A DNA stretch of 64,000 bases, from the IMG/VR virus record IMGVR_UViG_3300028283_000001; one strand, written 5' to 3'. The notes under the pieces were generated by a model. It was not told where the DNA came from. It did not search any database and worked only from the letters and a program-made list of their open reading frames with translations. Positions 8,189-64,000 of the stretch are shown here, piece after piece (position 1 is the first letter of the stretch; each line of letters starts with the position of its first letter). The position numbers and the translations under genes are program-made. The DNA comes from an uncultured virus (IMG/VR IMGVR_UViG_3300028283_000001) (taxonomy: Duplodnaviria > Heunggongvirae > Uroviricota > Caudoviricetes).

Positions 8189-8195
8189 TGGGACT

Positions 8196-9323: not shown

Positions 9324-9336
9324 GAGGAAATAAACA

Positions 9337-11455: not shown

Positions 11456-11458
11456 ATT

Positions 11459-11893
11459 ATGGCAAATAATGAATGGATACAAGGGTTTAAAGATGTTGCC
11501 GGGGTAGATGATGCAATGGCGAATAATGTTTGGCATTGGATGTTAACTGCCAAGGAGGTTAAACTGGAAGATAAAAATAACAAATTAAAAGGAATGGATG
11601 CTGGCAAAATATTTAAACGGAATGGTGGTTACGGGTTCCGCAATTCTTTTCAAAATGGTCGACTGAAAGCCGAGAAGTATTTAAACGACAAAGCAATGGT
11701 AATTGGTGTGAAGCTGGAGAATGATAAAATACCAACTACAGTCGGATGGTACGTTACGGATTTTGATGGGCACATTAAGGCTGGGCCAATGTCTGAGGCT
11801 GAAGCAAAAAAGAAAAGAGATGCAAATCCAGATAAATTGGACGCATCTTATTTTTCTGATTATGACATAAAACGGATTCAGGAAAGAGACTAA
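11459..11893 (+). CDS. Modular hypothetical protein inserted in tail operon (candidate capsid cargo)
   Basis: AT-rich relative to flanks; shares the FQNGR..A......KA...GVKLEN linker with 62235..63116. Confidence 0.6.
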   Translation: MANNEWIQGFKDVAGVDDAMANNVWHWMLTAKEVKLEDKNNKLKGMDAGKIFKRNGGYGFRNSFQNGRLKAEKYLNDKAMVIGVKLENDKIPTTVGWYVTDFDGHIKAGPMSEAEAKKKRDANPDKLDASYFSDYDIKRIQERD

Positions 11894-11898
11894 CCATA

Positions 11899-13879: not shown

Positions 13880-13880
13880 T

Positions 13881-14540: not shown

Positions 14541-14541
14541 T

Positions 14542-14871
14542 ATGAAAATTATTCGACTGACAAATGATGGCTGCGGCAAGATGGATGTGGATATGGGGGA
14601 AGCGGGGTTCTATACCTTTGTTACTCGATATAATTATACGGCTGGATGCTGGACCCTGGATATTATTGATTCTGCAGGGGCGATGCTATTAGCTGGACTG
14701 ATGCTGGTGCCGGAGGTTAATATTCTTCATGCGCATCCGAATATTGTAGAAATAATTGGTGCATTGTATTTGGTGGAAAACAAGATAGGACAGTATTTAC
14801 TGCCGGATTCCCTGGGTGTTACAACCTATTTGATTTGGTATGCCCCGGAGGAGCTGATCGGAACATTATGA
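14542..14871 (+). CDS. Small baseplate protein
   Basis: YN....WTLDI.D..G..LL.G..LV motif; synteny. Confidence 0.7.
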   Translation: MKIIRLTNDGCGKMDVDMGEAGFYTFVTRYNYTAGCWTLDIIDSAGAMLLAGLMLVPEVNILHAHPNIVEIIGALYLVENKIGQYLLPDSLGVTTYLIWYAPEELIGTL

Positions 14872-16214
14872 CAACAACTGAAGACCCTACAAATATTGCA
14901 CATCCCTATCTCCGGCAGGTTGAGGTAATTATCGGCCCATTGCCTGAGTATAAAGGTGGGGGGAAGGAATCCGATGGAATCCGGATCTTTGGGGATGGCT
15001 CCAATGATGCTTTTCGCATTCAGTTCCAGATTAATAAACCTTGGCTCCCCAGTAATGTGCGGATTTACAACCTCAGTGCTTCTTTGCGGAATATTCTCCA
15101 CACTGAGGCGGCGCAAATGATTGTTCGGGCAGGCTGGAAGAACTTTGATTTGATTGATATTTTTCGGGGATCCCTCCTTGCCTCCTTCAGCAATCGACAG
15201 GGGGCCGACATTATTACTGAACTCATTGGGTTCTCTGGCTGGTATGGCAAGAATAGAGCCGTGACGAGCGTGACCTTTGCTGAAGGCACTCAGTTAAAGG
15301 ATGCCGTAATGCAATTGGCGCGGCAGCTGGAAGGGGTTACAGTTGATTCAAAAAGGATCAGCCTTTCCCCACGGGGGATTCAGGCCGGGGGCAGGAGTTT
15401 TTCAGAGGCGACCAATGAGGCTCTTCAGAAACTCAGCCGAGAATACGGCTTCTCATGGGGGATCGATTTGGGGGTGTTCTACGCGATTGATGATCACCTG
15501 TCTTTCGCTTCTAATTCTGTGCCGGTGATTTCAGGAAGAAATGGCTACTTATTGCGTTCAGAACCGATGTTGTCAAGTCCTATTCCAGCGGTGACCGGGG
15601 TATCCGTTTCCTCCTTGTTTAACCCTTATGTAGAGGTGCGAGGGCAGTTTGTTTTGGAAAGCATTATCAACCCGGAACTTAATGGAACTTACGTAGCACA
15701 TACGGTTGCGCATTCCGGGGATACCCATAGCAACCAGTTCAATACAGAGATTCAGAGCTGGGTCGTGGGCGGCACTTTGCCTGTTACTCGTACTGAATAC
15801 AAGGAGTGGTCAGATTTGGAACTGCTGGCGGGCACTATCTATGGGGAGGCCAGGGGGGAAACAACCCGAGGGAAGCAGGCCGTAGGGCTGACAATCAAGA
15901 CTCGTGCCACGCACCCTTCTTGGTGGGGTTCAGGTTGGCGTGGAGTGATGCTGCAGAAAGCGCAATTTACGTGTTGGAATGATCATAATGCAGCTGCCAT
16001 TGTTGCCGGCAAAGAGGCTAATAATCATGCTTGGCAAGACTGTTACAGAGTGGCACAACAGATTTATTCTGGGCAAGTGGTGGATGTCGGCCTCTCCTTA
16101 TCCCCTACCCATTATTGCGCAAAGTCCATTCGCCCCTATTGGGTAAAGTCTCTTCAATTTATCGAGACCATTGGTGGGCATAATTTTTATCATGATCCAG
16201 GACTGAGGGGGTAG
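14868..16214 (+). CDS. Baseplate hub fused to C-terminal SleB/Hydrolase_2-like cell wall hydrolase
   Basis: Hub motifs (IYNLS, RAGW, IFRG, HSGDTH) followed by LAGTIYGEARGE..GKQAVG, AQFTCWN, PTHY, PYW, IGGHNFY. Confidence 0.85.
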   Translation: MTTTEDPTNIAHPYLRQVEVIIGPLPEYKGGGKESDGIRIFGDGSNDAFRIQFQINKPWLPSNVRIYNLSASLRNILHTEAAQMIVRAGWKNFDLIDIFRGSLLASFSNRQGADIITELIGFSGWYGKNRAVTSVTFAEGTQLKDAVMQLARQLEGVTVDSKRISLSPRGIQAGGRSFSEATNEALQKLSREYGFSWGIDLGVFYAIDDHLSFASNSVPVISGRNGYLLRSEPMLSSPIPAVTGVSVSSLFNPYVEVRGQFVLESIINPELNGTYVAHTVAHSGDTHSNQFNTEIQSWVVGGTLPVTRTEYKEWSDLELLAGTIYGEARGETTRGKQAVGLTIKTRATHPSWWGSGWRGVMLQKAQFTCWNDHNAAAIVAGKEANNHAWQDCYRVAQQIYSGQVVDVGLSLSPTHYCAKSIRPYWVKSLQFIETIGGHNFYHDPGLRG

Positions 16215-16216
16215 CT

Positions 16217-16891
16217 GTGGATTTAAGAGGGGCAGATGCCAACACACAACAGCGAGAAGTTATTGATCGAGCCTTGGCCCGCATTAACACCTGCATGCCT
16301 GGAGTGGTGCAATCATTTGATACGGCCACGCAACGAGCCATTGTTCTTCCGGGGGTAAAGCTGAAAATTTTCTTGGACAACAGTTTGTCATACTTGGATT
16401 TGCCGCCGATTGTTAATGTCCCAGTGGTATTTCCGTTTGCCGGGGGCTTTGGATGCACCTTGCCGGTTAAGGCGGGAGATGCTTGCCTATTGGTGTTTAG
16501 CCAACGGAGTATTGATAATTGGTTGCAATCAGGAGGCGTTCAACCTCCGGAGACAGATATCCCTGGAGCACGGCATCATGATTTGACAGATGCCATTGCT
16601 ATTATGGGGTTGGCGGCAAACCCCGATGTATGGGGAAGCTGGAATGCTGCGGGGATTGAGCTTCGAAATAAAGCCCGAACATCTCGAGTGACCGTGGAAG
16701 AAGCGGCAGTGGGGATTGCAGTTAATGGCATGTCGATTCTGGTGGACGCTGTTGGGATTAACATTACTGCGCCTCTTGTAACCGTCACCGGCAACCTGAT
16801 GGTCACAGGGACTATTTCTGACACGAATCATGCCTTTGATACCCATACTCACAGTGACCCACAAGGTGGAACAACAGGAGGTCCGAACTGA
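16217..16891 (+). CDS. Baseplate central spike (Gp138/gpV-like)
   Basis: PG.VQSFD, LPPIVNVPVVFP, GD.CLLVFSQRSIDNW, RHHDLTDA, C-terminal metal-binding HTH motif (THTHSDPQGG). Confidence 0.9.
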   Translation: MDLRGADANTQQREVIDRALARINTCMPGVVQSFDTATQRAIVLPGVKLKIFLDNSLSYLDLPPIVNVPVVFPFAGGFGCTLPVKAGDACLLVFSQRSIDNWLQSGGVQPPETDIPGARHHDLTDAIAIMGLAANPDVWGSWNAAGIELRNKARTSRVTVEEAAVGIAVNGMSILVDAVGINITAPLVTVTGNLMVTGTISDTNHAFDTHTHSDPQGGTTGGPN

Positions 16892-16892
16892 C

Positions 16893-17336
16893 ATGCCTTT
16901 TACCTGGAAAGTCGATGCAACAAATTATGATCTATCCATTAAGGATGGGAAGTTAGAAACCGTCTACAATGTTTCTGAAGTCCAGCAACGGATTCTGGTC
17001 ACCTTGTGGCATTACTGGGAAGAGTATTTTTTAAATGTTCAGGCTGGCATTCCTTGGTATGAATTGATTCTGGGAAGCAAGAACAAGAGAATGGTGGAAG
17101 CCCTTTTGCGGTACGCGATTCTTGGTGTTCCGGGGGTTGTTTCTATTATCCGTTTTCAGGTGGTATCTCCATCTGCTGGCTTGCGGGATTTCGCTATTTA
17201 CGCTGATGTGGAAGTGCAAGGTGGGGCAATATCAATCTTTGAAACTACAAAACCAATTCGGGCAAATTATATTATGAATGAGGATGGAATTAGAGCAACG
17301 AATCAGAGCGGAGTTTACTTGGAGGTCGCTACATGA
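16893..17336 (+). CDS. Baseplate wedge subunit (gp25/W-like)
   Basis: V.QRI...L.....EYFLN...GIPW...ILG and I.GVPGV..I motifs. Confidence 0.75.
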   Translation: MPFTWKVDATNYDLSIKDGKLETVYNVSEVQQRILVTLWHYWEEYFLNVQAGIPWYELILGSKNKRMVEALLRYAILGVPGVVSIIRFQVVSPSAGLRDFAIYADVEVQGGAISIFETTKPIRANYIMNEDGIRATNQSGVYLEVAT

Positions 17337-18568
17337 CAACCTTTGGCATTACAGATGAGGGCTTTACGCTTAAAAGGCTTGCGGATATTTTGGCCACCAC
17401 TACAGCGGCACTGTCCACTGTGGTTGATGCGGTTTCCGGAGAAAGCCTTACACCGGACCTGACAGATGAAAACGATCCATTGGTACAAATTGTTAATTCT
17501 TTTTGTGATTCAATCTCTGTTTGTTGGGAACAATTGCAATTGGCGTACAATCAGTTTGACCCCTTGAAAGCTACTGGGGCAGGGCTTTCCGGGCTGGTTC
17601 AGCTTAATGGGTTGACTCGGCAATTGGGAGGCTATGCCACTGCAGCGTTTGATGTGACCGGGACCGCCAATAAAACCATATTGGCAGGGAAGCAGGTGGC
17701 CGATATCAATAGTACTATCGTTTTTGCCTTGCCTGAGTTTACGCTTGACGGTGATGGGGAAGCTACTGTTACCGGCACTTGCACCGTGAAGGGGCCGCTG
17801 GTAGCATTGACAGGTTCTGTTTTTAATATTCTCACCCCTACGGCGGGCCTGTTAACTGCAGTCAATACGAATGATTCCTCTGGAGGAAGTGATGACGAGA
17901 CGGATGCGGAGTTAAGAGCGCGACAACAGTTGAGCACCTCCGGCACGGCCCACTCTGTTATTGATTCTGTTTACAGCGTGTTGGGCGGGATTACAGGGGT
18001 GACAATGGTTCGGGTTTATCAGAATAATACTTTGGATGACCCGGATACTCGAAGCATTCCTGCAAAATCTATTGCGGTGGTAATTATGGGCGGGGCAGAT
18101 TTGGCGATTGCAATTGCTTTGTTTCGGGTGATTCCATTAGGGGTTGGGCTTTATGGCACCACCACGGTTACACAAACCGATGCACAAGGCGTGGAATATC
18201 CGATTGCCTTTACCCGTCCAGCCGAAATTGACGTATTTGTGCTGGTTGATTTGGACATTGTTATTTCTGGCCTTTGGACGGATGAAAGTGAAGATGATAT
18301 TAAGGCTGCGATAGTTGCGTGGTCATTGCTGGGGGCTTCTGGGGTTGGGATTGATTCCGGATATGATCGGGATGGATATCTGCCTGGAGATGCTGTTTAC
18401 TCTTCGGAATTATATGTGCCAGTGAATAAGCAATTAGGAATTAAAATCAATTCAATCACTGTGGGCATAACCAATCCAGCCACTGAGGATTCTGTAGTTA
18501 TTGACTGGAATGAAATTGCCGTGTTTGACAGCACCAATATCACCGTGACATATGGGGGATCATCATAA
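17333..18568 (+). CDS. Baseplate J-like wedge protein
   Basis: FDP..ATG..L, G.D.ETDAELRARQ, GV..VRVYQN, F.RP motifs. Confidence 0.9.
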   Translation: MTTFGITDEGFTLKRLADILATTTAALSTVVDAVSGESLTPDLTDENDPLVQIVNSFCDSISVCWEQLQLAYNQFDPLKATGAGLSGLVQLNGLTRQLGGYATAAFDVTGTANKTILAGKQVADINSTIVFALPEFTLDGDGEATVTGTCTVKGPLVALTGSVFNILTPTAGLLTAVNTNDSSGGSDDETDAELRARQQLSTSGTAHSVIDSVYSVLGGITGVTMVRVYQNNTLDDPDTRSIPAKSIAVVIMGGADLAIAIALFRVIPLGVGLYGTTTVTQTDAQGVEYPIAFTRPAEIDVFVLVDLDIVISGLWTDESEDDIKAAIVAWSLLGASGVGIDSGYDRDGYLPGDAVYSSELYVPVNKQLGIKINSITVGITNPATEDSVVIDWNEIAVFDSTNITVTYGGSS

Positions 18569-24738: not shown

Positions 24739-25398
24739 ATGACGAAAAAAGCCGAAGTTAAATCCGTTGTTGCCCCTGCCGCTACCGCAGGAAAAGTGTT
24801 AACCGGGAAAGCCGCCCTGGACGCTATTAAAAAGGCCGACCCTAAAGCCGCCCTGGACGCTGCAAAAAAAGCCATTAACCTGGACGCCGTTAAAAAGGCT
24901 TCCAAAGCCCCTGAGCCGACCGCTGTAACGCCGATTAAGGCTAACGAGGTAACCTCCGAGCCGGAAGCCGTTAAAGCCCCTGAAGCCTCTGCTGCTGCTC
25001 CTGTGGTCGTCAAAAAGCGCATTAAGGTTGTTAACCCGGAAGTTGCTGCCGCTCTGGAAGCTGTTAAGGTTGCAAAGGCAAAAGCCGCTGAGGTCAAAGC
25101 CAAAATTGCCGCTGATAAGGCTGCTGCCAAAGCCGCAAAGCCCAAACGTGAAAAAGGGGTTAAACGTCAGTCCGCTTATAAAACGGGTCTTTCGGTGCTT
25201 TGCAATGATCCCCATATGGATCGCGAAACCTTTACCCTGTTGGTTAAGGGTCGGGGTGTTGCAATGACGGAAAAGAATCAGGTTCGTGTCAATCGTGCGT
25301 GGGATCGGGCAACCGACATTTTTAAACGGCTGGACGTTGCAGGTTGGTTGATTTCTGTTGGCGCTGCAGCTATTAAAATGACTGAAGACGTGAAATAA
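24739..25398 (+). CDS. Lys/Ala-rich histone-H1-like protein
   Basis: KAALDA.KKA repeats and AKAKAAEVKAK stretches; AAGGAG RBS; first early gene. Confidence 0.6.
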   Translation: MTKKAEVKSVVAPAATAGKVLTGKAALDAIKKADPKAALDAAKKAINLDAVKKASKAPEPTAVTPIKANEVTSEPEAVKAPEASAAAPVVVKKRIKVVNPEVAAALEAVKVAKAKAAEVKAKIAADKAAAKAAKPKREKGVKRQSAYKTGLSVLCNDPHMDRETFTLLVKGRGVAMTEKNQVRVNRAWDRATDIFKRLDVAGWLISVGAAAIKMTEDVK

Positions 25399-31605: not shown

Positions 31606-32121
31606 ATGAAAATTATAAATAGATTTACTGGCAATATTATTTTTGAGCATGAATCAGATAATTTGAAAATAGTGGTTGAAGCTGCTGTTTCGCTGAAAGT
31701 TTCCTTGAGATCCGCCAACCTGGGATACGCCGACCTGAGATACGCCGACCTGAGATACGCCGACCTGAGATCCGCCAACCTGGAATACGCCAACCTGGGA
31801 TACGCCAACCTGGGATCCGCCAACCTGAGATCCGCCAACCTGGAATTCGCCAACCTGGAATTCGCCAACCTGAGATCCGCCAACCTGGGATACGCCGACC
31901 TGAGATACGCCGACCTGGACTTTACATCAGGATTAAATTTTTCATGCAAAACATTCGGTATAAAAGCTGATATGCGACTTGCCGCTCAAATAGCGTACCA
32001 CTTTTGTCGTATTGATTTTGGGGATTGCGATGATGCGAAAAAGGCACAGTCTGATATTCGACTGTTAGCTAATAAATTTCATCGCGTTGCCGAATGTGGG
32101 AAAATAGAGGAGCCTAAATAA
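31606..32121 (+). CDS. Pentapeptide repeat protein
   Basis: About 14 A(N/D)Lxx repeats. Confidence 0.92.
   Translation: MKIINRFTGNIIFEHESDNLKIVVEAAVSLKVSLRSANLGYADLRYADLRYADLRSANLEYANLGYANLGSANLRSANLEFANLEFANLRSANLGYADLRYADLDFTSGLNFSCKTFGIKADMRLAAQIAYHFCRIDFGDCDDAKKAQSDIRLLANKFHRVAECGKIEEPK
31711..31920 (+). repeat. 15-bp tandem repeat (14 units) encoding the pentapeptide repeats
   Basis: T(C/A/T)CGCC(A/G)ACCTG(A/G)(G/A)A-type units. Confidence 0.9.
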
Positions 32122-35953: not shown

Positions 35954-36583
35954 ATGCCAAGAAAAAAAGTTGAACCTGTTGTTGAACCTGTTGTTGAACC
36001 TGTTGTTGAACCTGTTGTTGATGACGACGCTGTTGTTGAGGCTGCAGAAGACATGAATGATGTTCTCTGCCTTGATCCCGAAATTGATGTCACTCGGCCC
36101 ATTGACGTGGTCCGGAAAGAGGTGCTTAAATCTGCGGAACTGATTCTTTACACGGATATTGCGGATATTGGTCAAGTGGACGAAGATGGAAACAAGCCTC
36201 CGTTGTTGAGTGAAGAAACGCAGACCACTTTAACCGGATTGGGCTTTGTTTTTCCTGGGGCAGAAGATGCGCCTAAACCTGCCAAGGAATCCAAACCTGC
36301 CAAGGAATCCAAACCTGCCAAGGAATCCAAACCTGCCAAGGAATCCAAACCTGCCAAGGAATCCAAACCTGCCAAGGAAGATTTAGGGAAAACTGCGTAT
36401 GGCCATCGGGTTGGTTCGATGAGGGGGGACATTGATATGTTTGTTGAAGGCGTTTTAAAAACAGGCAAAAAGAAAATTAGTTGTGTTGCAACGGAAAAGG
36501 GCACTGGGGCTGCGCCCAGAAAGGTAAAAAAACATTTGGCCCGGTTGAAACAGGAAGGGTTGGAAATTGAAATCGTAGATTAA
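35954..36583 (+). CDS. Hypothetical protein with VEPV x4 and KPAKES x5 repeats
   Basis: AAGGAG RBS; acidic N-terminal half and basic C-terminus. Confidence 0.75.
   Translation: MPRKKVEPVVEPVVEPVVEPVVDDDAVVEAAEDMNDVLCLDPEIDVTRPIDVVRKEVLKSAELILYTDIADIGQVDEDGNKPPLLSEETQTTLTGLGFVFPGAEDAPKPAKESKPAKESKPAKESKPAKESKPAKESKPAKEDLGKTAYGHRVGSMRGDIDMFVEGVLKTGKKKISCVATEKGTGAAPRKVKKHLARLKQEGLEIEIVD
36275..36379 (+). repeat. Perfect 18-bp tandem repeat (5.8 units)
   Basis: AAACCTGCCAAGGAATCC; also GTTGAACCTGTT x4 at 35969-36016. Confidence 0.95.
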
Positions 36584-37458: not shown

Positions 37459-37853
37459 TGGGATTTGAACAGTTTTTCAATATCAGTGGGGATAAGGTTA
37501 AAAAGTATGAATCTCTGCTGAAGACCGCTAAAACGGAAAATGAAAAACGAGAATTTGAATCCGCATTATTGGTTCCTGTGGCGTTGCCTGATTTTGGGGG
37601 GCAACGTCCAACCGCTGATGCAATAGAGGATTTAACGGCTCGTTTGGTGTTTGCGAATGAAGAGGAGGCTGCTCTATTTAATCGACATTTCAAAGTCAGC
37701 CAATACGTGGAACGATCTTGTCATGATTTGAAGTTATTGATTGGGTTACTCCAATTGGTTGAAGAAGGGAAAATTAATTATGACGCAAGAACAGGAGCAG
37801 TGCATATCGTTGTTAGAGAAACAACTTATCAAAGACGGTCAAAAGTGGGTTAA
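37458..37853 (+). CDS. Hypothetical protein
   Basis: GGAGG/GGAG RBS; overlaps the start of the radical SAM gene. Confidence 0.6.
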   Translation: MGFEQFFNISGDKVKKYESLLKTAKTENEKREFESALLVPVALPDFGGQRPTADAIEDLTARLVFANEEEAALFNRHFKVSQYVERSCHDLKLLIGLLQLVEEGKINYDARTGAVHIVVRETTYQRRSKVG

Positions 37854-39240
37854 TGAAAACCGTGGTTTAAAATGTTCTAATGAACATTATAGTTCTCCTC
37901 GCATTAGTTCTGAAATTGGTGATTGTTCAATGCCCCTTACATTTGATCATTACAATTGGTGTTCGTTGCAATGCCAATATTGTTTTGCATACTTCTTTAA
38001 ATCCAATAATCCGGCAATAACAAAACTTACCTTGAAAGCTGTTGATGAAAAAGCATTGATCAATACGATATCCGGAAAAGCAAAAAGCAAACGTGAGAAG
38101 GAAATGTACGAGGTGTTTTACAAGAAGAAATTCCTTTTGCACTGGGGCGGGTTGGCGGATCCTTTTTGCAATTTTGAAAAGGCTAATCGTGTTGGATATA
38201 CGTTGATGTCGGCTTTGGGTGAAATGAATTACCCTACATTGTTTTCTTTCAAAGGGGCAACGATATTTGAAGAGGATTATCTTGCTCTTTTCCAAAAGTA
38301 TTCTGCGCAAAAGAATTTTGCTTTTCAGGCCAGTATAATCACGGCAGATGAAAAACTTGCAAAGAAAGCGGAGATTGGGGTTCCTTCCCCAACCCGTAGG
38401 CTGGAAGCACTCAAGACGTTGTCTGACATGGGCTATTGGACAATATTGAGGCTCCGCCCGTTTATCATTGGGGTGAGCGATAGCCATTTGGATGAGCTGT
38501 TGGGTCGTGCACTGGAGGCCGGGATTAAAGGTGTTTCTATGGAGTTCTTTGCAATGGATGCTCGGGTTTCAGAAGGGATGAGGTTGCGGTATGAATGGTT
38601 GGCTGGCATCATTGGAGTACAGGGTGGTGCAGACGGATTAATGGATTATTTCAAAAAACTATCTCCTTCTGAACGAGGAGGATATCGGCGGTTGAATCGT
38701 TTAGTTAAAGAAGTTTATGTTCGTAAGGTGTATGAGTTTTGTTTAAAGAATGATTTGGTGTTTGGTTGTTCAGACCCTGATTTTAAGGAATTGAACATGT
38801 CAGGATCATGTTGTGCAATGCCAGACAACCATCCCGGCAATCGGCTATTGGAAAACTGGAGTCGTCATCAATTGACTTACGCCTTAAAAGAAGCCCGTTT
38901 AAATTATCACCGAAACGGAGTAAAGCAAAAAGTAACTTTTGCGGGGGTTTACGGTGGGCCTGAAGTGTTGGCTGCTGGATATTTGGATAGTAAGGGTTTA
39001 TCTCAAGATCACGTGGCAGTAGTGGGCCAATGCAATGCGGTTCGCCAGAATCTTACTCATCGTATAATTCTTCAACGTCAATGGAATAATTTAAGATCAC
39101 CTGCTAATCCACGTAATTATCTTCATGGCAAGCTGATGCCAACAGGAATTGATTCGGAAGGGAATCTTGAATATATTTATTCGCCAATGGAGTATGAGCG
39201 CCGTTGGATAAAAGAGGGTGTTGATCTTTCAATACGATGA
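37780..39240 (+). CDS. Radical SAM enzyme (spore photoproduct lyase-like)
   Basis: CSLQCQYC (CxxxCxxC), GGLADPF, E.GVPSPTRRLEAL, LRLRPFI. Confidence 0.88.
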   Translation: MTQEQEQCISLLEKQLIKDGQKWVNENRGLKCSNEHYSSPRISSEIGDCSMPLTFDHYNWCSLQCQYCFAYFFKSNNPAITKLTLKAVDEKALINTISGKAKSKREKEMYEVFYKKKFLLHWGGLADPFCNFEKANRVGYTLMSALGEMNYPTLFSFKGATIFEEDYLALFQKYSAQKNFAFQASIITADEKLAKKAEIGVPSPTRRLEALKTLSDMGYWTILRLRPFIIGVSDSHLDELLGRALEAGIKGVSMEFFAMDARVSEGMRLRYEWLAGIIGVQGGADGLMDYFKKLSPSERGGYRRLNRLVKEVYVRKVYEFCLKNDLVFGCSDPDFKELNMSGSCCAMPDNHPGNRLLENWSRHQLTYALKEARLNYHRNGVKQKVTFAGVYGGPEVLAAGYLDSKGLSQDHVAVVGQCNAVRQNLTHRIILQRQWNNLRSPANPRNYLHGKLMPTGIDSEGNLEYIYSPMEYERRWIKEGVDLSIR

Positions 39241-39252
39241 GCGGAGGATAAG

Positions 39253-39798
39253 ATGAAAAGAAAAATTATTGCGATTGGTGGGGTTCCTGGAAGCGGGAAA
39301 ACAACTTTGGTTAAAAATTTTATGGAGGGTTACAGTTGGGTTGAATGTAAACCTTCTAAATTGATTGTTTCAATGTATAATAAAGATAATGATCTTCATA
39401 TTTTTGGGTCTTATAAAGATGAAGAAATTTATGCTGGAACAGACCGGTTATCAATGGCGGTTCAACCGGAAATTAAAAAATGGATAACAAACGAAAGTTT
39501 TAATTTTATTTTTGAGGGTGATCGTCTTTTTAATTCTACTTTTTTAGAATTTTTAAAAACATTAAATTGTGATCTTTATATTGTTTTTTTAAAATGTAAA
39601 GATGAAGTTTTAAAAAGACGATATTCTCAAAGGGGGTCTAACCAATCATCTACATTTTTGAAAGGCAGGTGGACAAAGCAGCGTAAATTAAAATTTAATT
39701 TTAAATTAATGATGGATACTTTTAATTTTGAAAATGAAACTGTTGATGATCAATTTAAAATTTTAGATTTTTTAAAAACAAAAATGGAGTTAAAGTGA
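39253..39798 (+). CDS. P-loop nucleotide kinase of the type linked to phage base modification
   Basis: IAIGGVPGSGKTT, G.Y...E.YAGTDRLSMAVQP, FEGDRLFN, RGSNQS.TFLKGR. Confidence 0.75.
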   Translation: MKRKIIAIGGVPGSGKTTLVKNFMEGYSWVECKPSKLIVSMYNKDNDLHIFGSYKDEEIYAGTDRLSMAVQPEIKKWITNESFNFIFEGDRLFNSTFLEFLKTLNCDLYIVFLKCKDEVLKRRYSQRGSNQSSTFLKGRWTKQRKLKFNFKLMMDTFNFENETVDDQFKILDFLKTKMELK

Positions 39799-55995: not shown

Positions 55996-56017
55996 CATCA
56001 CAAAAAAAGAAATCATT

Positions 56018-56704
56018 ATGTTTAGTGCTGAAGAAATTCCTCGGATTCGAAGGCGTTCATTGCCGATGTTGCCACCCTCCGTTCTTCAACGGCAAAGGGG
56101 GGAAAGGATTTGCCCAGCGCGCAATCAGAACGGTCAGCTTACATTAAAGGAAGCGTTGTTTGTTAGGGCCATCTGCTGTTGCCCCGAAGATCCCACGTTT
56201 GATAACATGTGTGCCGCCATGCGCAAGGCTGGTTATAATGGTAAGCACGTGGGGGTGGCTGCGTATGAGTTGATGAAGAAACCAAAGATCGCCAATGCAA
56301 TAGAAAAATATCGTCAAAATATTATGCAAGAATTTGATATCACACCAAAAAAAGTATTGCAAGAAATAGCGGCTACCGCATTTAGCGATTTCGGTGATTT
56401 TTATAATAATGACGGTACCCTAAAGAACTTAAAGCGACTCTCAAAGGCTGCTAGAGTCGCTTTGCATGGGGTTGATATTCAGTATGGATTGAATTCTGAT
56501 GGAATTCCAGCAGTAACACAAAAGATTAAGTTGCATGATAAGTTAAAAGGGTTAGAATTATTGGGTAAATATCATAAGCTGTTTACTGATAACGTGAATA
56601 TCACTAATTTGGATTCTGACATCACGCAGGATGAACGGGCGGCGCAAACAAGGAGCCGATTATTGGCTGAGCTTTCAAACGATAAGGATGATGGAGGCGA
56701 ATGA
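56018..56704 (+). CDS. terS: Terminase small subunit
   Basis: AMRKAGY, LMKKPKI..AI, VLQEIA..AFSD, KIKLHDKLKGLELLGKY..LF. Confidence 0.88.
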   Translation: MFSAEEIPRIRRRSLPMLPPSVLQRQRGERICPARNQNGQLTLKEALFVRAICCCPEDPTFDNMCAAMRKAGYNGKHVGVAAYELMKKPKIANAIEKYRQNIMQEFDITPKKVLQEIAATAFSDFGDFYNNDGTLKNLKRLSKAARVALHGVDIQYGLNSDGIPAVTQKIKLHDKLKGLELLGKYHKLFTDNVNITNLDSDITQDERAAQTRSRLLAELSNDKDDGGE

Positions 56705-58233
56705 CCGCATTATCTCTTATAGATTTTTGGCGCATAAGAAGGCGACATGAAGGGTTGAAAACAATCGTGCGCCCATGCCATCACACTATTGCTGAAGCAT
56801 TAACACATTTAATGCTGGGCAAGCTCTCCACTCCTAACCTTATGATATTGCAACCTCCACGTACGGGCAAATCAGATCTTTTGCGTGCGTTTCAAGAATG
56901 GGCGTTTTCATACTTTCCAGACTCAGAATTTATTGATGCGGCTTACGGCACGGATCTTGCCACGAAGATGTGTGAAGACACCCGGACAACCTTGTCGGCA
57001 TCTTGGTATAGAGATTGTTGTGATTCTACTTGGGGCGCACATGTGGCGTCAAGGGGGGCAAGCGTAGGAGGAAGAAAAGATTACTTTCACACTGTAGAAG
57101 GCGGCAGCGTGAAGGCGGTGGGTAGTGGAACGGGGTCTTTGGGTTTTGGGGCAGGAAAGTTACGACCAGAGTTTGGCGGGGCGGTTTTGATAGATGATCC
57201 TTTGAAGCTACAGGATGCCACTTCTGTAGCGGTGAGAAAAAGCACTGTTGAATGGATTCATGGGGCATTAGAATCCAGACGGAACAGGAAAAAAGATCCT
57301 ATGACCCCATTGGTTCTTGACATGCAAAGATTACATCCACAAGACCCTGCTGGTCATCTTTTGTCTACAGAGCGTCACCGGTGGACGGTGATCCAAGTTC
57401 CTGCACATGATGAAAACAATCAATCTATTTGGCCTGCTCGGATTAGTATGAATGAGCTTGAACACCTTAAAATATATGATCTTGATACGTACCTTTCTCA
57501 GTACATGCAATCACCATCTACCACCGCGTACGAATTATTAATATCTGATTGGTGGCGATTTTGGGTTGATAGAAGTGAAGTGGAGAAACGCATTACCCTG
57601 AAGTTGATCACCGCTGATACCGCTTTTAAAGAAGGGGATAGCAACGATTACAGTGTTTTACAATGTTGGGGGTGTTTAGGAGTAGGCGGAATGGTTCTTC
57701 TTGATCAGGTTCGGGGCAAGTGGGATTTTCCTGATTTATGTAAAGAGGCCATAGATTTTTTGAAGAAGCATCGACAGCCGATCCCCGGCATCACCCCTGT
57801 GACGGAGTGTTGGGTAGAAGACCGGGCCAGTGGAACTTCTCTTGTGCAAACACTTCGAAAGGCTGGGCTTCCTTTTCGACAATGGCTCCCTCCGCATGCT
57901 GATCAAAAACTGATTGATGGAAGCCAGGTTTTATCAGGCCCGGATAAGGTGAGCCGAGTAAAGCAGAGCAGTATGACAATTAAGCCTGGTAGAATCTTTT
58001 TACCCTGGCCAGGACTTTCTGATTGCCGTTGGGTGGAGGGGCTGGTTAATGAGTGCATGTCTTTTAGTAATGATGATTCTCATCTTTATGATGATCAGGT
58101 GGACGCAATGACCATGGCTAACCTTATTTGGCAACAACGGGGCGGGGGCGTAGGGGCCATTTCAGTTGTTCGGAGTAACGGGTGGCAAGATTGGTTGCAT
58201 CGGAACGAACAGCATTGGAGGAAAGCCGCATAA
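56701..58233 (+). CDS. terL: Terminase large subunit
   Basis: PPRTGKS Walker A, LIDDPLK Walker B, MQRLH..D, YMQSP, DTAFK...NDYS, VEDRASG, DDQVDAMT. Confidence 0.95.
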   Translation: MTALSLIDFWRIRRRHEGLKTIVRPCHHTIAEALTHLMLGKLSTPNLMILQPPRTGKSDLLRAFQEWAFSYFPDSEFIDAAYGTDLATKMCEDTRTTLSASWYRDCCDSTWGAHVASRGASVGGRKDYFHTVEGGSVKAVGSGTGSLGFGAGKLRPEFGGAVLIDDPLKLQDATSVAVRKSTVEWIHGALESRRNRKKDPMTPLVLDMQRLHPQDPAGHLLSTERHRWTVIQVPAHDENNQSIWPARISMNELEHLKIYDLDTYLSQYMQSPSTTAYELLISDWWRFWVDRSEVEKRITLKLITADTAFKEGDSNDYSVLQCWGCLGVGGMVLLDQVRGKWDFPDLCKEAIDFLKKHRQPIPGITPVTECWVEDRASGTSLVQTLRKAGLPFRQWLPPHADQKLIDGSQVLSGPDKVSRVKQSSMTIKPGRIFLPWPGLSDCRWVEGLVNECMSFSNDDSHLYDDQVDAMTMANLIWQQRGGGVGAISVVRSNGWQDWLHRNEQHWRKAA

Positions 58234-60738
58234 ATGCTAAAAAATACATTGACTCCACAATTCACTCGTAAATCACGGGTTCAAAATGCTTCTTTCGCCT
58301 CTTCTATTAATGGGGCATTAGGAGAGGGGGATAGAGGCGCTTTTCAACGAGTCCCTGCTATTACTGGAAACCCATACGAATTTCAGAACTATCTTGACCG
58401 CTGGCGGCAGTATTGCCATCTGTATGAAATCTGTTGGGAAGCCCGTAAAATAGTCCGTATCCCTGTGGAGGACGCATTACGAAAAGACTGGGAAATAGAG
58501 AATATTCCAGAGGGGATTACCAAAATACTTCGTAAGGAAGAAAAGAAGTTTAAGTTCCGTGATTCCCTTGCCCGTGCATGGATGCTGGAGCGGTTATTGG
58601 GAGGGTGTATACAGTTTTTTGGCCTGGAGCAGAATACAGATGATGTTTCTAAGCTGTACCAACCATTACTGGGAATGTCAAAGCTGCGGTTTATCAATGT
58701 TATCCCTGTCAGCAGAATCTCCCGTGTAAATTGGGAGACTGACCCCCTGAAGATAGGCTATATGCGGCCTAACGAGTTCATAATTAATGGGCATAATATG
58801 CATATCAGCCGGTGTATTCTGTGGGATGGAGAACCGCTGTTCGACCCATATGATTTCGCTCTTACTCAGTTCAGGGCGAACCTGGCGGGATTTGGGCCCA
58901 GTAAACTTGCTCCTATATGGGATGATATCGTAAAGGCTGTAGGTACCAGGCAGGCTGCATATCAACTTATCCAAACCAATAATGCTCTGATAATGGCCGT
59001 CAGCCAGTTGCAGGATCTTGTGGGGACCAACCCCGGAAAGGCAAAGCTGGCAGAACTAAAAGAGATCACCAAACATTTATCCCTTTATCGAGCGGCCATT
59101 ATAGATAAGGAAAAAGTTACGATTAGTCAGCAGTCCGCAGCCTTTGGCAGTGTTCCGGAATTGCTGATGACATTCTTACAAGTCTTATCGGCCGCTTCCG
59201 ACATACCGGCCACCCGGTTTCTGGGGCAGGCCCCCGGTGGGCTGAACGCCACAGGAGAAAGTGATTTGGAGAATTACTATAATGTGGTGGATGCCATGCA
59301 GCGGCAGAAACTGGAACCTGCCATTCGACAATTTTATGATATCCTCGGGTATCATAAGTGGCCAGACAGCTGGGGGAGAATCCGGGAAGACCTGGAGATC
59401 AAGTTTCCACCCCTTTGGAATATCAATGAGCTGGAAGAAGCACAAAAGAATCAAATCGAGATTGCCAATGTTATGCAGTGTTGGGAAGCGGGGGTTTTGC
59501 CTGATGAAAAGTTGGTTGAGGAGCTTAATCTGAAACAGGTTTTTTCCTGTGACTTGGACGAGAAAGATATTGACCTGATGAAGTCCATGCAGGATGATTC
59601 TGGTTTTTATGGGGCTGATCAGGGGGTTGATTCTTCTGAGGAGAGACGCAGGCAGACTGCTGCGACGCGTTCGGCTGGGGGTCAAGGGGGTTATAAGGGT
59701 GAAGGTGAGGGGGAGAAACCTGCGACCGCTGAGGGGCCACCCCTTAAAAAACCACCTTTGTCTAAAATTGGGAACAAAGCCGAATTTAAAGAAGAAGAAC
59801 ACCCACGGGCTGATGATGGTAAGTTTGGTTCTGGGGCGGGTGAAGCTTCTGTGACAGATAAAAAACCAAAGCCTGCTAAAATGTCTGACGAAGAAAAGAA
59901 TCAACAGAAGGAAGAACAATTTCAAGAGTTGTTGGCGACTAAAAACCCGCATGATCAAGAAGCCTTTAAAAAGGCACAAACATTAGGGATAAATGTTCAG
60001 CCCGCTTGGACAGATGTGTGGGTAAACGATGATCCTAACGCTGATATTTTAGCTTTGGGCCGCGATAAGAAAGGAAAATTGCAATATACCAGGAGTGCAG
60101 CAGCCTCCAAACGGGCTGAAATTAAAAAGTATAACCGCTTACGAGATTTTAGTAATGATTATGCGGGAATTATGAATGCTGTTGATAAAGATTTTTATCG
60201 GTCTGTTGAATCTCAAGTTCTTTATTTGATTAGCAAAACGGGTTTCCGCGTGGGCGGGGAAGAAGGTTCCACGGCGGCTGAAGAGCAAGCATATGGGGCA
60301 TCTACACTGACTTCTGATATGGTGAAGATAGACGGTGATGTTATTCAGTTTACCTTTACGGGTAAGCATGGGGTAAAACAAAATCATTTGTTGACAGACC
60401 CTAAAATGGCCAATTTGCTTCGTCATAAACAGGGACAACTTTTTAACACTAATGATGCAAAAGTTTTAAAGTATATGAAAAAAACAAGCGGTAAGGATTA
60501 CTTGACGAAAGATTTAAGAACTTATGTTGGGACAAAGACCGCCCTGGTTGCAATAGAAAAGATGGACACCCCCGTGGGGGAAAAGGCAATTAAGAAGGCC
60601 ATGATGGAAGTGGCTAAAATTGTGAGCGCTAAATTAGGCAATGCCCCTAAAATGGCGCTTGATAGTTATATTGATCCAATGGTATTTGATCGGTGGAAGG
60701 GGTTAGCTGATGCTACAAAGCAACAACAAAAAGGATGA
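58234..60738 (+). CDS. Portal protein (DUF1073-like) fused to a C-terminal DNA topoisomerase IB domain
   Basis: Portal motifs ARKIV.IP.EDA.R and AASDIP.TRFLGQAPGGLNATGESDLENYY; TopIB motifs PAWTDVW..GRDKKGKLQY, TGFR, YGASTL, FTGKHG, KDLRT, LGN....SYIDP. Confidence 0.9.
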   Translation: MLKNTLTPQFTRKSRVQNASFASSINGALGEGDRGAFQRVPAITGNPYEFQNYLDRWRQYCHLYEICWEARKIVRIPVEDALRKDWEIENIPEGITKILRKEEKKFKFRDSLARAWMLERLLGGCIQFFGLEQNTDDVSKLYQPLLGMSKLRFINVIPVSRISRVNWETDPLKIGYMRPNEFIINGHNMHISRCILWDGEPLFDPYDFALTQFRANLAGFGPSKLAPIWDDIVKAVGTRQAAYQLIQTNNALIMAVSQLQDLVGTNPGKAKLAELKEITKHLSLYRAAIIDKEKVTISQQSAAFGSVPELLMTFLQVLSAASDIPATRFLGQAPGGLNATGESDLENYYNVVDAMQRQKLEPAIRQFYDILGYHKWPDSWGRIREDLEIKFPPLWNINELEEAQKNQIEIANVMQCWEAGVLPDEKLVEELNLKQVFSCDLDEKDIDLMKSMQDDSGFYGADQGVDSSEERRRQTAATRSAGGQGGYKGEGEGEKPATAEGPPLKKPPLSKIGNKAEFKEEEHPRADDGKFGSGAGEASVTDKKPKPAKMSDEEKNQQKEEQFQELLATKNPHDQEAFKKAQTLGINVQPAWTDVWVNDDPNADILALGRDKKGKLQYTRSAAASKRAEIKKYNRLRDFSNDYAGIMNAVDKDFYRSVESQVLYLISKTGFRVGGEEGSTAAEEQAYGASTLTSDMVKIDGDVIQFTFTGKHGVKQNHLLTDPKMANLLRHKQGQLFNTNDAKVLKYMKKTSGKDYLTKDLRTYVGTKTALVAIEKMDTPVGEKAIKKAMMEVAKIVSAKLGNAPKMALDSYIDPMVFDRWKGLADATKQQQKG
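59645..59700 (+). repeat. Dispersed element core, copy D (in the portal-TopIB linker)
   Basis: GACGCAGGCAGACTGCTGCGACGCGTTCGGC followed by GGGGTTATAAGGG. Confidence 0.9.
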
Positions 60739-60739
60739 A

Positions 60740-61048
60740 ATGCCAGTAACGGATGGGGACGTGTTAATGCAAGATTATGTGCATTCGATGATCTTTCAAA
60801 ACGCTGATGGCACTATATTTGATGAATCTGCAGATGGAACGGAAGCGTCGTCCCCTCAGGTTGTTATTCACAACATGGTTTCTGCCCCCGTTATTTATAA
60901 CCCAGAACAGGTTATGGCAGGAATGAAGGTAGAGTTTGAGCATAACGATTTAACACAAGGGGATCCGGTTAAGATTGCAGAAATTGTTAAGGCCCATCTG
61001 GATGAGGATCCTGAATACTACACCAAACTTGAAAAGGCGGGGTTATGA
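60740..61048 (+). CDS. DUF5661-like small protein
   Basis: GMKVEFEH......IV.AHL.EDPEYYTKL. Confidence 0.7.
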   Translation: MPVTDGDVLMQDYVHSMIFQNADGTIFDESADGTEASSPQVVIHNMVSAPVIYNPEQVMAGMKVEFEHNDLTQGDPVKIAEIVKAHLDEDPEYYTKLEKAGL

Positions 61049-61302
61049 ATTCTTTTGAAAACGGTAGGCAAAAAGCATTGAATGCATTCAAAAAGAAAGA
61101 AGCTGAGCAGGGTTTAATTTTTGGGCGTACGTGGGAAGAGGTTCAATCAATGCAGCAAAAAACATATATTCCCAAAACGGTTGATGTTTCCCCTGTTGGG
61201 GATTATGGTGCAGACCCATTGGGAAATGGTAAATTTAAAATGGTTCCATCTGGGGATATTGTTGACTTGGCAGAAATGAAGCGAAGGCGGGGTTATAAAT
61301 AA
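61045..61302 (+). CDS. Small hypothetical protein with NSFENGRQKA motif (candidate capsid cargo)
   Basis: N-terminal motif shared with 11459 and 62235 ORFs; in the head operon. Confidence 0.65.
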   Translation: MNSFENGRQKALNAFKKKEAEQGLIFGRTWEEVQSMQQKTYIPKTVDVSPVGDYGADPLGNGKFKMVPSGDIVDLAEMKRRRGYK

Positions 61303-61303
61303 A

Positions 61304-62218
61304 ATGCCGCTTATCCTTGACATACGGCAGGCAAAAGCGCTGAAGCGGAAAAAACGGGTGAAGAAACTTCGACCTGTGAAATCCCCGGCTATGGCGCAGA
61401 AGCTGTTGCAGCAGCAAACAGAACGTCTATGGGAACAGATTATTTTCCCTTCCCTGGAGCGGATTAAACAGGCCGTGACCAATGGGGTAGATCTTGAGCA
61501 GCTTTCCCAGCTGTTGCAGCAGGAAATGGAGCAAGCCGCGTGGATGTATGGAATGGAAACCGAACAAATTGTAGATATGTGGAGGTTGACGGTAGATAAG
61601 TTAACCAAAATCAAGTTGAATGCTGTGCTTAACAGGTCTTTGGGTATTGATTTGACTGCGGTGCTGGATGACCCCTCTGTAGCAGAAGCCTTGGCGGTGG
61701 GAGCGTTTCAGGCGGAGGAGCTTATCAAAACCATGCCGACAAAAGTCATGGGGCAGGTTGCGCAGGCGGTAATGGCCAATATGCGGGGGATCCCGCTACC
61801 GGAGGGGCGCAGCCTTCTTCAGCAGATAGAGTTTCTGGGCACCCGGAGTAAAAAATGGGCCCATGTTATTGCTCGTGATCAAACTGCGAAACTCAACGCC
61901 ACGCTGAATCAAACCCGGCAACAGGCGCTGGGCATTGACACTTATATTTGGCGTACGATGGAGGATTTACGGGTAGTGGGCAATCCTGCAGGGCAGTATC
62001 CTGGGTGGAATGATAAGCATATGGACCATTATGTAATGGACGGGTTATATTGCCGGTGGGATGATCCCACTGTATTCAGCACGGATGAAGGGAAGAGCTG
62101 GAGAAAGCGCACCGGAAAGATGCCAAAGAATCACCCAGCGGATGACATTCTTTGCCGCTGTTATACGGAAGCTGTGATGGACTTGGATAAAATACTGGCG
62201 CATGCCACTGTACAGTGA
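61304..62218 (+). CDS. Head morphogenesis protein (MuF/SPP1 gp7-like)
   Basis: IARDQTAKLN......RQ..LGI..Y.W.T..D.RV, H..MDG..C.WDDP, HP.DDILCRC. Confidence 0.9.
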   Translation: MPLILDIRQAKALKRKKRVKKLRPVKSPAMAQKLLQQQTERLWEQIIFPSLERIKQAVTNGVDLEQLSQLLQQEMEQAAWMYGMETEQIVDMWRLTVDKLTKIKLNAVLNRSLGIDLTAVLDDPSVAEALAVGAFQAEELIKTMPTKVMGQVAQAVMANMRGIPLPEGRSLLQQIEFLGTRSKKWAHVIARDQTAKLNATLNQTRQQALGIDTYIWRTMEDLRVVGNPAGQYPGWNDKHMDHYVMDGLYCRWDDPTVFSTDEGKSWRKRTGKMPKNHPADDILCRCYTEAVMDLDKILAHATVQ

Positions 62219-62234
62219 GGGGGGTAGATAAAAA

Positions 62235-63116
62235 ATGAGTTATAATGTTATGATTTCAGATAAATCTAAACCGAATACCGCACCGACAATGAAATTTGCT
62301 AAAGATGAAGCGGAGGCAAAAGCAATCGTTTCTCATGCAAAAGGGATGGGGTTAGAAGCTATTATGAAATTGGTAAGTAAAGATTATGATGAAAAAGCAT
62401 TTATTGCTTCCAGAAAAAAATCAGAAAAACATAATAAGAAAATTAATAATGTTTTCCAAAACGCAATTATTGATTATGGTGGGGGTTACCGAGTTGCTTC
62501 AACGCCTGTTGGCTGGATTGTTTTTTATTCTGGGATTAAGGTTGGGCATGGAAATAATGAAGAGGAAGCGAAACAGGTTATTAGAGATGATAGCAAGAAA
62601 AGGTTTTTTGGTCATCCACATGAGCCTGTTGCAAATTGTGCTTTCCAAAATGGTCGCACCCGCGCACTCGATCATATTACAAACAAGGCAGGGTTGGTTG
62701 GTGTGAAGCTGGAGAATGCGGGTGATGCGTATGAAGAAGGTGAGAATGCTGCACAGAATAATGTTTCACGAAATGCAAATAAATACCCCAAAGGATCAGG
62801 GCAATGGAAACAATGGGATTCTGGATGGAGTAACGCAACAGGAAACAGGTTGAAAAAGAAAGTAGCAAACATGGCAAGTAAGATTGGGGTACGGGTGGAG
62901 AATGCGGCAGTGTTGTATAAAACAGAATCAAAAAGCAAAAAATTTATCATTACGGTTACGAATGATAAAGAAGGTATTATTGAAGTAGTTAGCACAAGGG
63001 CAGATGGGTTTTATCCAACAGTAGAAGATCGAAGTAAATATACGGATGATAAGTCGAGACAACAGGTGATTACTATGGCTAAATCCTTTGCGGATAGTTT
63101 TGCAAGAAATAATTAA
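62235..63116 (+). CDS. Modular hypothetical protein (candidate cargo polyprotein)
   Basis: Short modules separated by FQNA, FQNG, VKLENA and VRVENA; between MuF and protease genes. Confidence 0.65.
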   Translation: MSYNVMISDKSKPNTAPTMKFAKDEAEAKAIVSHAKGMGLEAIMKLVSKDYDEKAFIASRKKSEKHNKKINNVFQNAIIDYGGGYRVASTPVGWIVFYSGIKVGHGNNEEEAKQVIRDDSKKRFFGHPHEPVANCAFQNGRTRALDHITNKAGLVGVKLENAGDAYEEGENAAQNNVSRNANKYPKGSGQWKQWDSGWSNATGNRLKKKVANMASKIGVRVENAAVLYKTESKSKKFIITVTNDKEGIIEVVSTRADGFYPTVEDRSKYTDDKSRQQVITMAKSFADSFARNN

Positions 63117-63126
63117 GGCTAAAATC

Positions 63127-64000
63127 ATGAAAATTACAAACCAGTTTACGCCAATCGCTCCCGAGTCTCCGAAGTGGGAAAAGACTGAGGACGGCTTTCT
63201 CCGCTGCAAGGCAAGGGTATTGATGGAGACCATAATGCCTTATGGTAGAAACGAGCTTGAAGGGCTGCCAGAGGGCTTTAAAAATTCAACCGTAAATATG
63301 TACGTACCCCTTGATGAAATAGTCGCCAGTGACGCCCTGCGGTCTCTGGAGGGGATGCCTATAGTGGCTGGGGACCATACTTGGATGACTCCGGAACTGA
63401 TATCCGATTATTCAATGGGCAATGTTTCTGGCACTCCGGTGGTAGAAGGGGGTAGTTTGATTTGTAACATTCTGGTGACGAATCCTGAAGCCATCGCCGC
63501 TATAGAGAATGGAAAGATCGGAGAGATTTCTGCAGCCTACCGAGCAGAGACAGAATTTGTCAATGGCACGTGGAATGAACAAACCTATGACGCAGTGCAA
63601 CGGGGCTTGCGTTTCAATCATATTGCTGTGATTCCGAAAGGACACGGCCGAGGCGGAAGTGAAGTACGAATCTTAAACAAAAAACAGGAGGACGTGAATA
63701 CCATGAGTGATGAAAAGAAAAAAGTCAGAGTGAAACTCCGGAACACCGGGAAGTATGTCAATGTGGATGAGGATGTGGCTCCGGACATCGAAGCTGAGGC
63801 CGATGCGGGGGAAGCCAAAACGGCGGGTATGGATGATAAGATCAGTACCCTGGAAGGGAAGAACGCTGATCTTGAAGCTCTCCAGGCAGAGATTGAGGAA
63901 CTGAAAGGGGAGCTGTCCGTGTACAAAGAGAAACTGGATCAGCTGCTCTCAGAGGAATCTGTTGAAGCTGCGGCTGAAGGCATGGTGGCAGAAACGGGCG
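63127..64000 (+). CDS. Prohead protease/scaffold (DUF2213-like), truncated by the window edge
   Basis: Read manually: MKITNQF..TEDGFL..SLEGMPI..H..EISAAY..FNHIAVIPKGHGRGGSEVRILN, then an acidic coiled coil; open to the end. Confidence 0.85.
   Translation, partial: MKITNQFTPIAPESPKWEKTEDGFLRCKARVLMETIMPYGRNELEGLPEGFKNSTVNMYVPLDEIVASDALRSLEGMPIVAGDHTWMTPELISDYSMGNVSGTPVVEGGSLICNILVTNPEAIAAIENGKIGEISAAYRAETEFVNGTWNEQTYDAVQRGLRFNHIAVIPKGHGRGGSEVRILNKKQEDVNTMSDEKKKVRVKLRNTGKYVNVDEDVAPDIEAEADAGEAKTAGMDDKISTLEGKNADLEALQAEIEELKGELSVYKEKLDQLLSEESVEAAAEGMVAETG

Follow-up and report, generated by a model that had tools for sequence, protein, structure and literature searches.

Genomic context and gene order

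The 64,000-nucleotide stretch analyzed here (the window) comes from an uncultured virus of the Caudoviricetes (IMG/VR record IMGVR_UViG_3300028283_000001), and encodes a prohead protease-scaffold of the DUF2213 family together with three small proteins that share a helical motif (the tag), which are considered below as candidate cargo of the phage head. The virus is a myophage; the window covers most of its genome, is transcribed from the + strand, and belongs to a circular genome of approximately 70 kb, as contig L001 overlaps the window from position 56000 and ends back in window position 1. Contig L001 carries an identical protease, followed by the genes for a cement protein and a PF09950 capsid protein. 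Because the closest genome-resident relatives sit in Desulfosarcina widdelii PP31 and in two metagenome-assembled genomes, one of the Desulfobacterales and one of the Syntrophobacteraceae, the genome comparison points to hosts among the Desulfobacterota. The sequencing data sets that best contain the sequence are metagenomes of lake water, a possible source of the virus.

The region from 56018 to 64000 encodes on the + strand, in this order, the small and large terminase subunits, a portal protein fused to a type IB topoisomerase (58234..60738; PF06381, PF01028, PF21338), a free-standing DUF5661 protein (60740..61048; PF18905), an 85-aa protein with an N-terminal tag in a layout resembling the capsid-targeting sequence (CTS) of phage T4 (61045..61302; GC 39.5%), a MuF minor head protein that lacks a C-terminal cargo domain (61304..62218; PF04233), a 293-aa modular protein (62235..63116; GC 38%), recognized by its structural model and the recurrence of its modules, and the DUF2213 prohead protease-scaffold fusion (63127..64000; PF09979, PHROG 530 head maturation protease). 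The third tagged gene, also on the + strand, encodes a 144-aa two-module protein (11459..11893; GC 38%) with a full internal tag at nucleotides 11648-11722, and is flanked by the genes for the tail tube and the tail chaperone. The three tagged open reading frames (ORFs) are referred to below by their start positions.

The prohead protease-scaffold

The protease gene starts with an ATG at 63127 and runs off the window; in L001 the protein has 403 aa, of which residues 1-184 are the protease. Its assignment to PF09979 is above the curated cut-off (E=1.7e-30), and the gene lies upstream of the cement and PF09950 capsid genes. The top fold match of the protease model was T4 gp21 (PDB 5jbl; Foldseek probability 1.00, E=1.4e-3), followed by herpesvirus proteases, and on this modeled structure the DUF2213 protein has the T4 gp21/assemblin fold. 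His84, Ser135, Arg175, Asn5, Asn184 and one scaffold Asn were invariant in 14 relatives (alignment numbered from residue 2), with His84 and Ser135 as putative catalytic residues and Arg175 as putative oxyanion residue. The two ends of the protease read KITN↓Q (N5) and RILN↓K (N184), the arrow marking a candidate cleavage position, with a possible internal scaffold start at Met193.

A probable switch from Asp to Asn in the cleavage code

Among 32 protease domains placed in a tree, those 18 that end in Asn formed a single clade (100/99), the others having Asp at that position; L067, which ends in R-I-F-D, was counted as Asp, and L063 and L064, whose domain end was not found, were left out. Both protease ends switch between Asp and Asn together, and phage TLS and the other sampled cultured members have Asp at both. 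The statement in the earlier note that DUF2213 proteins usually carry Asp at the protease/scaffold border is borne out by the alignment and the tree. In 14 scaffolds of the Asn clade, 119 of 166 Asn residues were preceded by a hydrophobic residue at P3 (hydrophobic-x-Asn, h-x-N, with Asn as P1), compared with a background hydrophobic frequency of 0.25, 0.34 for the next-best residue type, and 16 of 62 Asn in 11 scaffolds of the Asp clade. Scaffold composition follows the same division, with Asn at 5.3% in the Asn clade versus 2.6% in the Asp clade, and Asp at 4.3% versus 10.1%.

An experimental anchor is provided by phage TLS, whose gp33 and gp36 belong to the same families (protease PF09979, capsid PF09950), gp33 having been recognized as a DUF2213 protein by the PF09979 search. 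The TLS capsid N-terminus determined by Edman degradation, ASDMGIW (PMC11447400; for this and the other papers cited, statements refer to the sections drawn on here), follows K-N-D in the gene product (L079, 6088-7062), which places the cut after Asp27. This position does not fit the estimate given in the same paper, that 45 residues are removed.

Because of the crowding of h-x-N sites in the scaffold, the Asn at both protease ends in one clade and the Asp anchor of TLS, the protease of the window lineage probably cuts after Asn; this cleavage code is backed by co-variation and by the one experimental anchor, which lies in the Asp branch. Two positions co-vary with the switch: position 33 is basic in all 14 Asp rows versus 3 of 18 Asn rows, and Arg60 is present in 13 of 14 Asp rows versus none of the 18 Asn rows. 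Loss of these two arginines, which would bind the P1 carboxylate, may underlie the change; TLS, which cuts its capsid protein after Asp27, has kept both, whereas the window lineage has the predicted Asn code and a capsid protein without a conserved leader site.

A very unlikely alternative is that the protease has no Asn preference, and that h-x-N is a product of helix capping and of the composition of AT-rich, acidic proteins. Helices are commonly capped by N-G, and among 31 non-virion proteins 158 of 407 Asn (39%) fit h-x-N. Against this stand the concerted replacement of Asp by Asn along one branch, where the two protease ends, the scaffold sites and the cargo joints all changed, and the scaffold P3 bias, which no other residue type shares. 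The comparison of head with non-head proteins proposed in the earlier note came out differently for the two forms of the motif: bare h-x-N is not enriched in the small ORFs or the portal, whereas h-x-N-(A/S/G), a P1' class picked after the data had been seen, makes up 29 of 407 Asn in non-virion proteins and is enriched relative to these both in the scaffold (5 of 11; p=0.0009) and among the four small ORFs (9 of 42; p=0.005), with no enrichment in the portal. The proposal of Asn cleavage itself was strengthened by the fold, the conserved residues and the switch, which extends from the two protease ends to the scaffold and the portal-cargo joints, and found no backing in the frequency of bare h-x-N in cargo and portal.

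Portal fusions and cargo joints

The portal carries a leader site, RVQN↓A (N18), and a joint, KIGN↓K (N514), followed by an HPR motif and the fused topoisomerase. Among 55 homologs of the topoisomerase module, which is fused also to other portals and to MuF and DUF2213 proteins, 21 contain the HPR motif that opens this cargo, in 25 instances; the residue before it completes h-x-N in 5 instances, is Asp in 17, and neither in 3. All three portal fusions with an Asn joint have an h-x-N leader too, and portal joints are h-x-N in the Asn clade, while in several Asp-clade phages Asp stands ahead of the added domain.

At 59800-59830 the portal cargo opens with the motif (F/W)-x-E-x-x-H-P-R-x-x-D-G-K-F-G, which recurs in many unrelated head-protein fusions; it is a candidate for another docking tag, one of wider distribution. 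The topoisomerase itself (59800-60738) has apparently intact motifs that we take to be of the catalytic type.

The DUF5661 protein is encoded by a free gene in the window and forms part of the portal in most relatives, the fused domain being preceded by an h-x-N site. Insertion of the topoisomerase seems to have separated it from the portal. The site IFQN↓A, which the earlier note had placed at the domain edge of this protein (60740), does not lie there: the edge is VIHN↓M (residue 45), matching VKN↓A in portal-fused relatives, and no F-x-N-G-R helix is present.

A shared helical tag in small proteins

The motif strings quoted in the earlier note were all found in the window at the positions given there. 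The motif shared by the small proteins is a helix of approximately 15 residues with the consensus F-x-N-G-R-x-(K/R)-A-x-x-E-I-x-x-K, present in three ORFs of the window. F-x-N-G-R occurs six times in the six reading frames: in ORFs 11459 (nt 11648), 61045 (nt 61054) and 62235 (nt 62643), and in three further places, which belong either to no called gene or to a short overlapping frame. N-G-(R/K)-x-x-A is confined to these three ORFs, and G-V-(K/R)-x-E-N to nt 11705, 62700 and 62886, i.e. once in 11459 and twice in 62235. In 62235 the full tag (62643..62717, +; helix at residues 136-154 in the model) combines the F-x-N-G helix with a second site, K-L-E-N↓A, and a half-tag helix (62850..62903, +) ends in I-G-V-R-V-E-N↓A without F-x-N-G; a similar half-tag occurs in contig L002 (ORF at 11168). 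In 61045 the tag is shortened: it has L-N↓A at residue 13, and no h-x-N site follows.

Relatives were collected by three queries (the protease, the 293-aa protein and a tag profile). A hidden Markov model (HMM) of the tag, built from 18 copies and applied with a cut-off of E<0.05 to 1.24 M residues of fetched sequence, gave 45 distinct matches, while five shuffles of the same set gave 0, 1, 0, 0 and 0. Among the 45, the consensus residues are F in 40, N in 42, G in 45, R in 34, K/R in 44, A in 45, E in 27, I in 39 and K in 37. Two matches, L050 and L051, came from a DNA-pattern scan and belong to an unrelated phage without DUF2213 protease; they were dropped, and the remaining 43, in related phages, proteins and satellite-like elements, include L044 and L046, contigs that are fragments without a protease gene. 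The degenerate DNA pattern matched 14 stretches in 12 viral contigs; those in L048, L052 and L053 scored poorly and were treated as chance. No tag was found in 26 Asp-clade loci, a scan that did not extend to TLS itself, and the tag region had no tblastn match in 50,697 GenBank phage records.

The genes of tagged proteins lie in between those for the head, neck and tail, and in the complete phage G001, which was searched whole, all 4 copies lie at 3132-15909, around the head genes. The tag is N-terminal in approximately eight proteins, with the same leader-plus-site layout as the T4 CTS, C-terminal in approximately five, and internal in the remainder. A second h-x-N follows 13-29 residues past the tag Phe in 32 of the 43 copies, versus 25% of 1277 control stretches. 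Two Asn-clade phages, L031 and L056, have an Asn protease, and no tag was found over 20 kb of their head and tail genes; because of this the tag is, as far as these gene regions tell, accessory and dispensable in some members of the clade. The FxNGRxxA targeting signal of the earlier note was too short: its occurrence in many small proteins with shuffled modules stands, and the conserved stretch extends over about 15 residues, usually with the second h-x-N.

It would be rather improbable that the tag is instead an extended protease-recognition (exosite) element and that the tagged proteins are core components degraded with the scaffold. T4 has small core proteins that are destroyed, and processed core fragments (PMC9026906), and the satellite-like elements described below keep a tag directly behind the protease; the tag also has a weak likeness to one scaffold helix (best p=0.02 of 16 scaffolds). 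The modules beside the tag, however, fold into compact domains within which few sites fall, their diversity is high, as in conflict effectors and not in assembly parts, and the profile-profile similarity between tag and scaffold is not significant (probability 0.3%). A scaffold-mimic idea was set aside as unsupported, since hhalign of the tag versus the protease-scaffold gave 0.3% and a position-specific scoring matrix reached p<0.05 in 1 of 16 scaffolds, with scores far under those of true tags. A predicted complex of protease-scaffold, capsid and tag scored 0.00 with uncertain partner folds, and is evidence neither way.

Shuffled modules around the tag

The search of related phages with a linker HMM for variable flanking modules, suggested in the earlier note, yielded such modules: the 66 flanking segments of at least 30 residues beside the tag fell into 50 clusters. 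Two modules of 62235, an RMF-like one (8 segments) and module 1 (4 segments), were each found on both sides of the tag, and both recur beside it elsewhere in other orders.

The 293-aa protein comprises M1 (residues 1-48), a helical spacer to VFQN↓A (N76), M2 (77-125), the full tag (137-161), the RMF-like M3 (162-205; nt 62718..62849, +), the half-tag to RVEN↓A (N223) and M4 (224-293). Its AlphaFold model (pTM 0.32) shows separate small domains joined by helices, with helices over both tags; M1 and M3 are modeled confidently, M2 and M4 with low confidence. M3 is below the Pfam RMF cut-off (E=0.11, 13 bits versus a gathering score of 27.9), while its tag-bearing homolog P0006 is above it (E=7e-8, 32.8 bits). 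Among 48,161 chains its best structural match was RMF (4v8g_AV; Z 6.6, which is middling, rmsd 2.0 over 51 residues), with which it shares the helix-NPY-helix arrangement (PF04957, PDB 4v8g chain AV); it differs from RMF in lacking the basic N-terminal stretch. M1, M2, M4, 11459 and 61045 had nothing above cut-off in Pfam or PHROG, the named polyvalent domains included, and ESM Atlas queries with 62235 and 11459 gave no usable match. The modularity of 62235 claimed in the earlier note is thus supported by the model, with a recognizable fold for M3 alone.

Recombination at the DNA level offers another explanation, in which the stretch is conserved as a joint where cassettes are shuffled, with the peptide as a by-product. 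The two full tags of the window (62235 and 11459) share 21 identical nucleotides, with 53 of 93 nucleotides identical, and the cargo genes are AT-rich (GC 38-39.5% versus 47-55% in core genes). Among 35 tag copies with DNA, however, all synonymous codons are used (Ala GCG 11, GCT 9, GCC 8, GCA 7; Phe 16/14; Asn 17/15). Because the conserved residues use all of them, selection on the tag, as read from codon usage, is at the protein level, and a purely DNA-based origin is extremely unlikely, even if the DNA may still aid shuffling as a side effect.

Satellite-like elements

Three satellite-like elements in Desulfosarcina and relatives (L054, 8961-17871; L055, about 9000-17442; L028, 744-9256) encode an Asn-clade protease in which a short tail takes the place of the scaffold; this tail starts with a tag and contains copies of the R-L-G-F-like terminal motif of the scaffold. 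Tyrosine recombinase genes lie nearby in all three, serine recombinase genes in L054 and L028, and L028 also has a baseplate hub gene (PF22759). An ORF resembling ribbon-helix-helix (RHH) regulators upstream of the satellite protease carries a tag-like helix. The two host genomes, of 7.3 Mb and 6.7 Mb, have no capsid gene of the Asn clade, and the two best tag matches in them were both inside a satellite-like element. A C-terminal domain related to the histone-like ORFs of the window (see below) is encoded in the L054 element (14678).

These elements bear on a further reading, in which the Asn code is real, and the helix serves self-association or partner binding in the producing cell, cleavage by the head protease acting as a late timer that frees, for example, the RMF-like domain. 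In the RHH regulators the tag-like helices lack the Asn, L031 and L056 do without the tag, and packaging is a prediction. This reading, which we consider unlikely, has against it the interleaving of tagged genes with head, neck and tail genes, the approximately eight copies with exactly the T4 CTS type of N-terminal leader and site, and the alternation of DUF5661 between free and portal-fused forms.

A proposed model of cargo loading and release

The combination of an Asn cleavage code and a docking tag is, as a whole, the reading that we marginally prefer. The protease-scaffold would assemble the prohead, and the helix of about 15 residues would dock tagged small proteins on a prohead component, wherever it lies in the chain, so that they become enclosed in the head. 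The protease would then cut h-x-N before small residues or Lys at exposed joints, i.e. at its own two ends and throughout the scaffold, which would be chopped, and cuts in the portal would release its leader together with fused cargo, topoisomerase IB for example. The second h-x-N, 13-29 residues past the Phe, would release the following module, and as many as four small domains, among them the RMF-like one, would come from 62235. That the helix targets proteins to the capsid seems slightly favored by gene position, the leader-like layout and the analogy with the T4 CTS and P1 DarB. Delivery to the next host, where the modules would act in takeover or against defenses, is the least supported step, a plausible one that we would not call probable, and is suggested because of the analogy with T4 internal proteins and portal- or MuF-fused effectors (PMC5512222, PMC5576092).

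Cleavage, packaging, injection and effector activity are predictions for the Asn clade, and several observations weigh against this model. Bare h-x-N is not enriched in the four small ORFs (20 of 42, p=0.17) or the portal (16 of 38, p=0.41), and occurs inside the folded topoisomerase, where it includes a family-conserved active-site Asn; a conserved h-x-N leader is missing from the major capsid protein. The scaffold and second-site counts come from related, not independent, sequences. The absence of the tag from L031 and L056, the 11 of 43 tags that have no second site, several of them ending the protein, and the location of the 11459 gene among tail genes all count on the same side, as do the modules M1, M2 and M4 without a recognizable fold. 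The Gly after the first Asn of the tag is invariant, yet it follows 3 of 119 scaffold h-x-N sites, and the RHH-type regulators of the satellite-like elements, not obvious virion proteins, keep the helix without the Asn; because of this, the first Asn (FxN↓G) may serve to cap the helix, or have another structural role, rather than being a cut site.

Other features of the genome

Contigs from RNA libraries, which cannot show transcription, covered parts of 56000-64000 (X5, 28 of 30 bins; X7, 17 of 30). Glycosyltransferase-, methyltransferase- and phosphatase-like ORFs, recognized by eye from translations, lie at 3562-7712 between the head-tail adaptor and neck genes; this cluster is conserved in L003, L005 and L031 and is possibly involved in virion glycosylation. 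A radical SAM protein (Pfam E=2.9e-6) and a P-loop kinase-like ORF, encoded at 37741-39798 beside the DNA polymerase III alpha gene, possibly function in DNA base modification. Two Lys/Ala/Pro-rich histone-like ORFs, one with PAKESK repeats, are located at 24739-25398 and 35954-36583, and a pentapeptide-repeat-like protein, recognized by eye, at 31606-32121.

Comparison with known systems

The closest parallel is T4, where the internal proteins IPI-III and Alt, the CTS and gp21 (PMC9026906, PDB 5jbl) combine the same protease fold, a hydrophobic-x-P1 specificity, and a shared tag joining targeting and processing ahead of divergent small proteins; cargo shuffling behind a shared tag has been proposed for T4-like phages (PMC9026906). 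The present system differs in its P1 residue, which is Asn instead of Glu, in a tag that is a helix of about 15 residues unrelated to the 10-residue CTS and that may be N-terminal, internal or C-terminal, in its multi-module chains, and in the fusion of protease and scaffold. It belongs to a phage of about 70 kb resembling Pam3 and E217, and its packaging of cargo is predicted. SPN3US gp245 and phiKZ gp175 (PMC10052503) also perform motif-directed cleavage of many head proteins, with Glu specificity. For the CTS of P1 DarB (PMC9024508) a short peptide is sufficient for packaging, and for the Dar N-termini the paper reports no common consensus.

Polyvalent, MuF and portal-fused effectors (PMC5512222, PMC5576092) likewise place effector-like domains on the portal, where they are proposed to be packaged and injected; the portal fusions comprise topoisomerase IB in the window, and InPase-like and DUF5661 domains in relatives. 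For processing, the consulted parts of these papers propose embedded peptidases or contain no discussion, with no linker code or shared tag (PMC5512222, PMC5576092). The sections used of the cryo-EM papers on E217, XM1 and Milano give no mapped cleavage site, and a literature search of mainly open-access texts turned up no report of an Asn-specific prohead protease, of the specificity of DUF2213 or of this tag; among seven papers found to mention DUF2213, none treats protease specificity in its title. A head protease with tagged cargo is already known from T4, SPN3US and phiKZ; to this the window contributes the position-independent shared tag, the switch from Asp to Asn as traced in the tree and at cargo joints, and the reuse by satellite-like elements.

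For a large and barely studied protease family, the result is a testable rule, in which one branch is predicted to have changed from Asp to Asn, with two candidate switch residues. If the tag loads capsids, injected cargo would become readable from sequence, and the tag would join the peptides of T4 and P1 as the third portable signal for capsid targeting. The broadest reading, which is tentative and rather doubtful, is that the lineage evolved an Asn-specific protease and a position-independent loading helix that makes any small domain injectable, an RMF-like ribosome binder included, and that capsid-less satellite-like elements of Desulfosarcina captured protease and tag, on the shortened scaffold and the RHH regulator, to hijack or sense the helper prohead. 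Such reuse of protease and tag by satellites would represent a possible route of hijacking.

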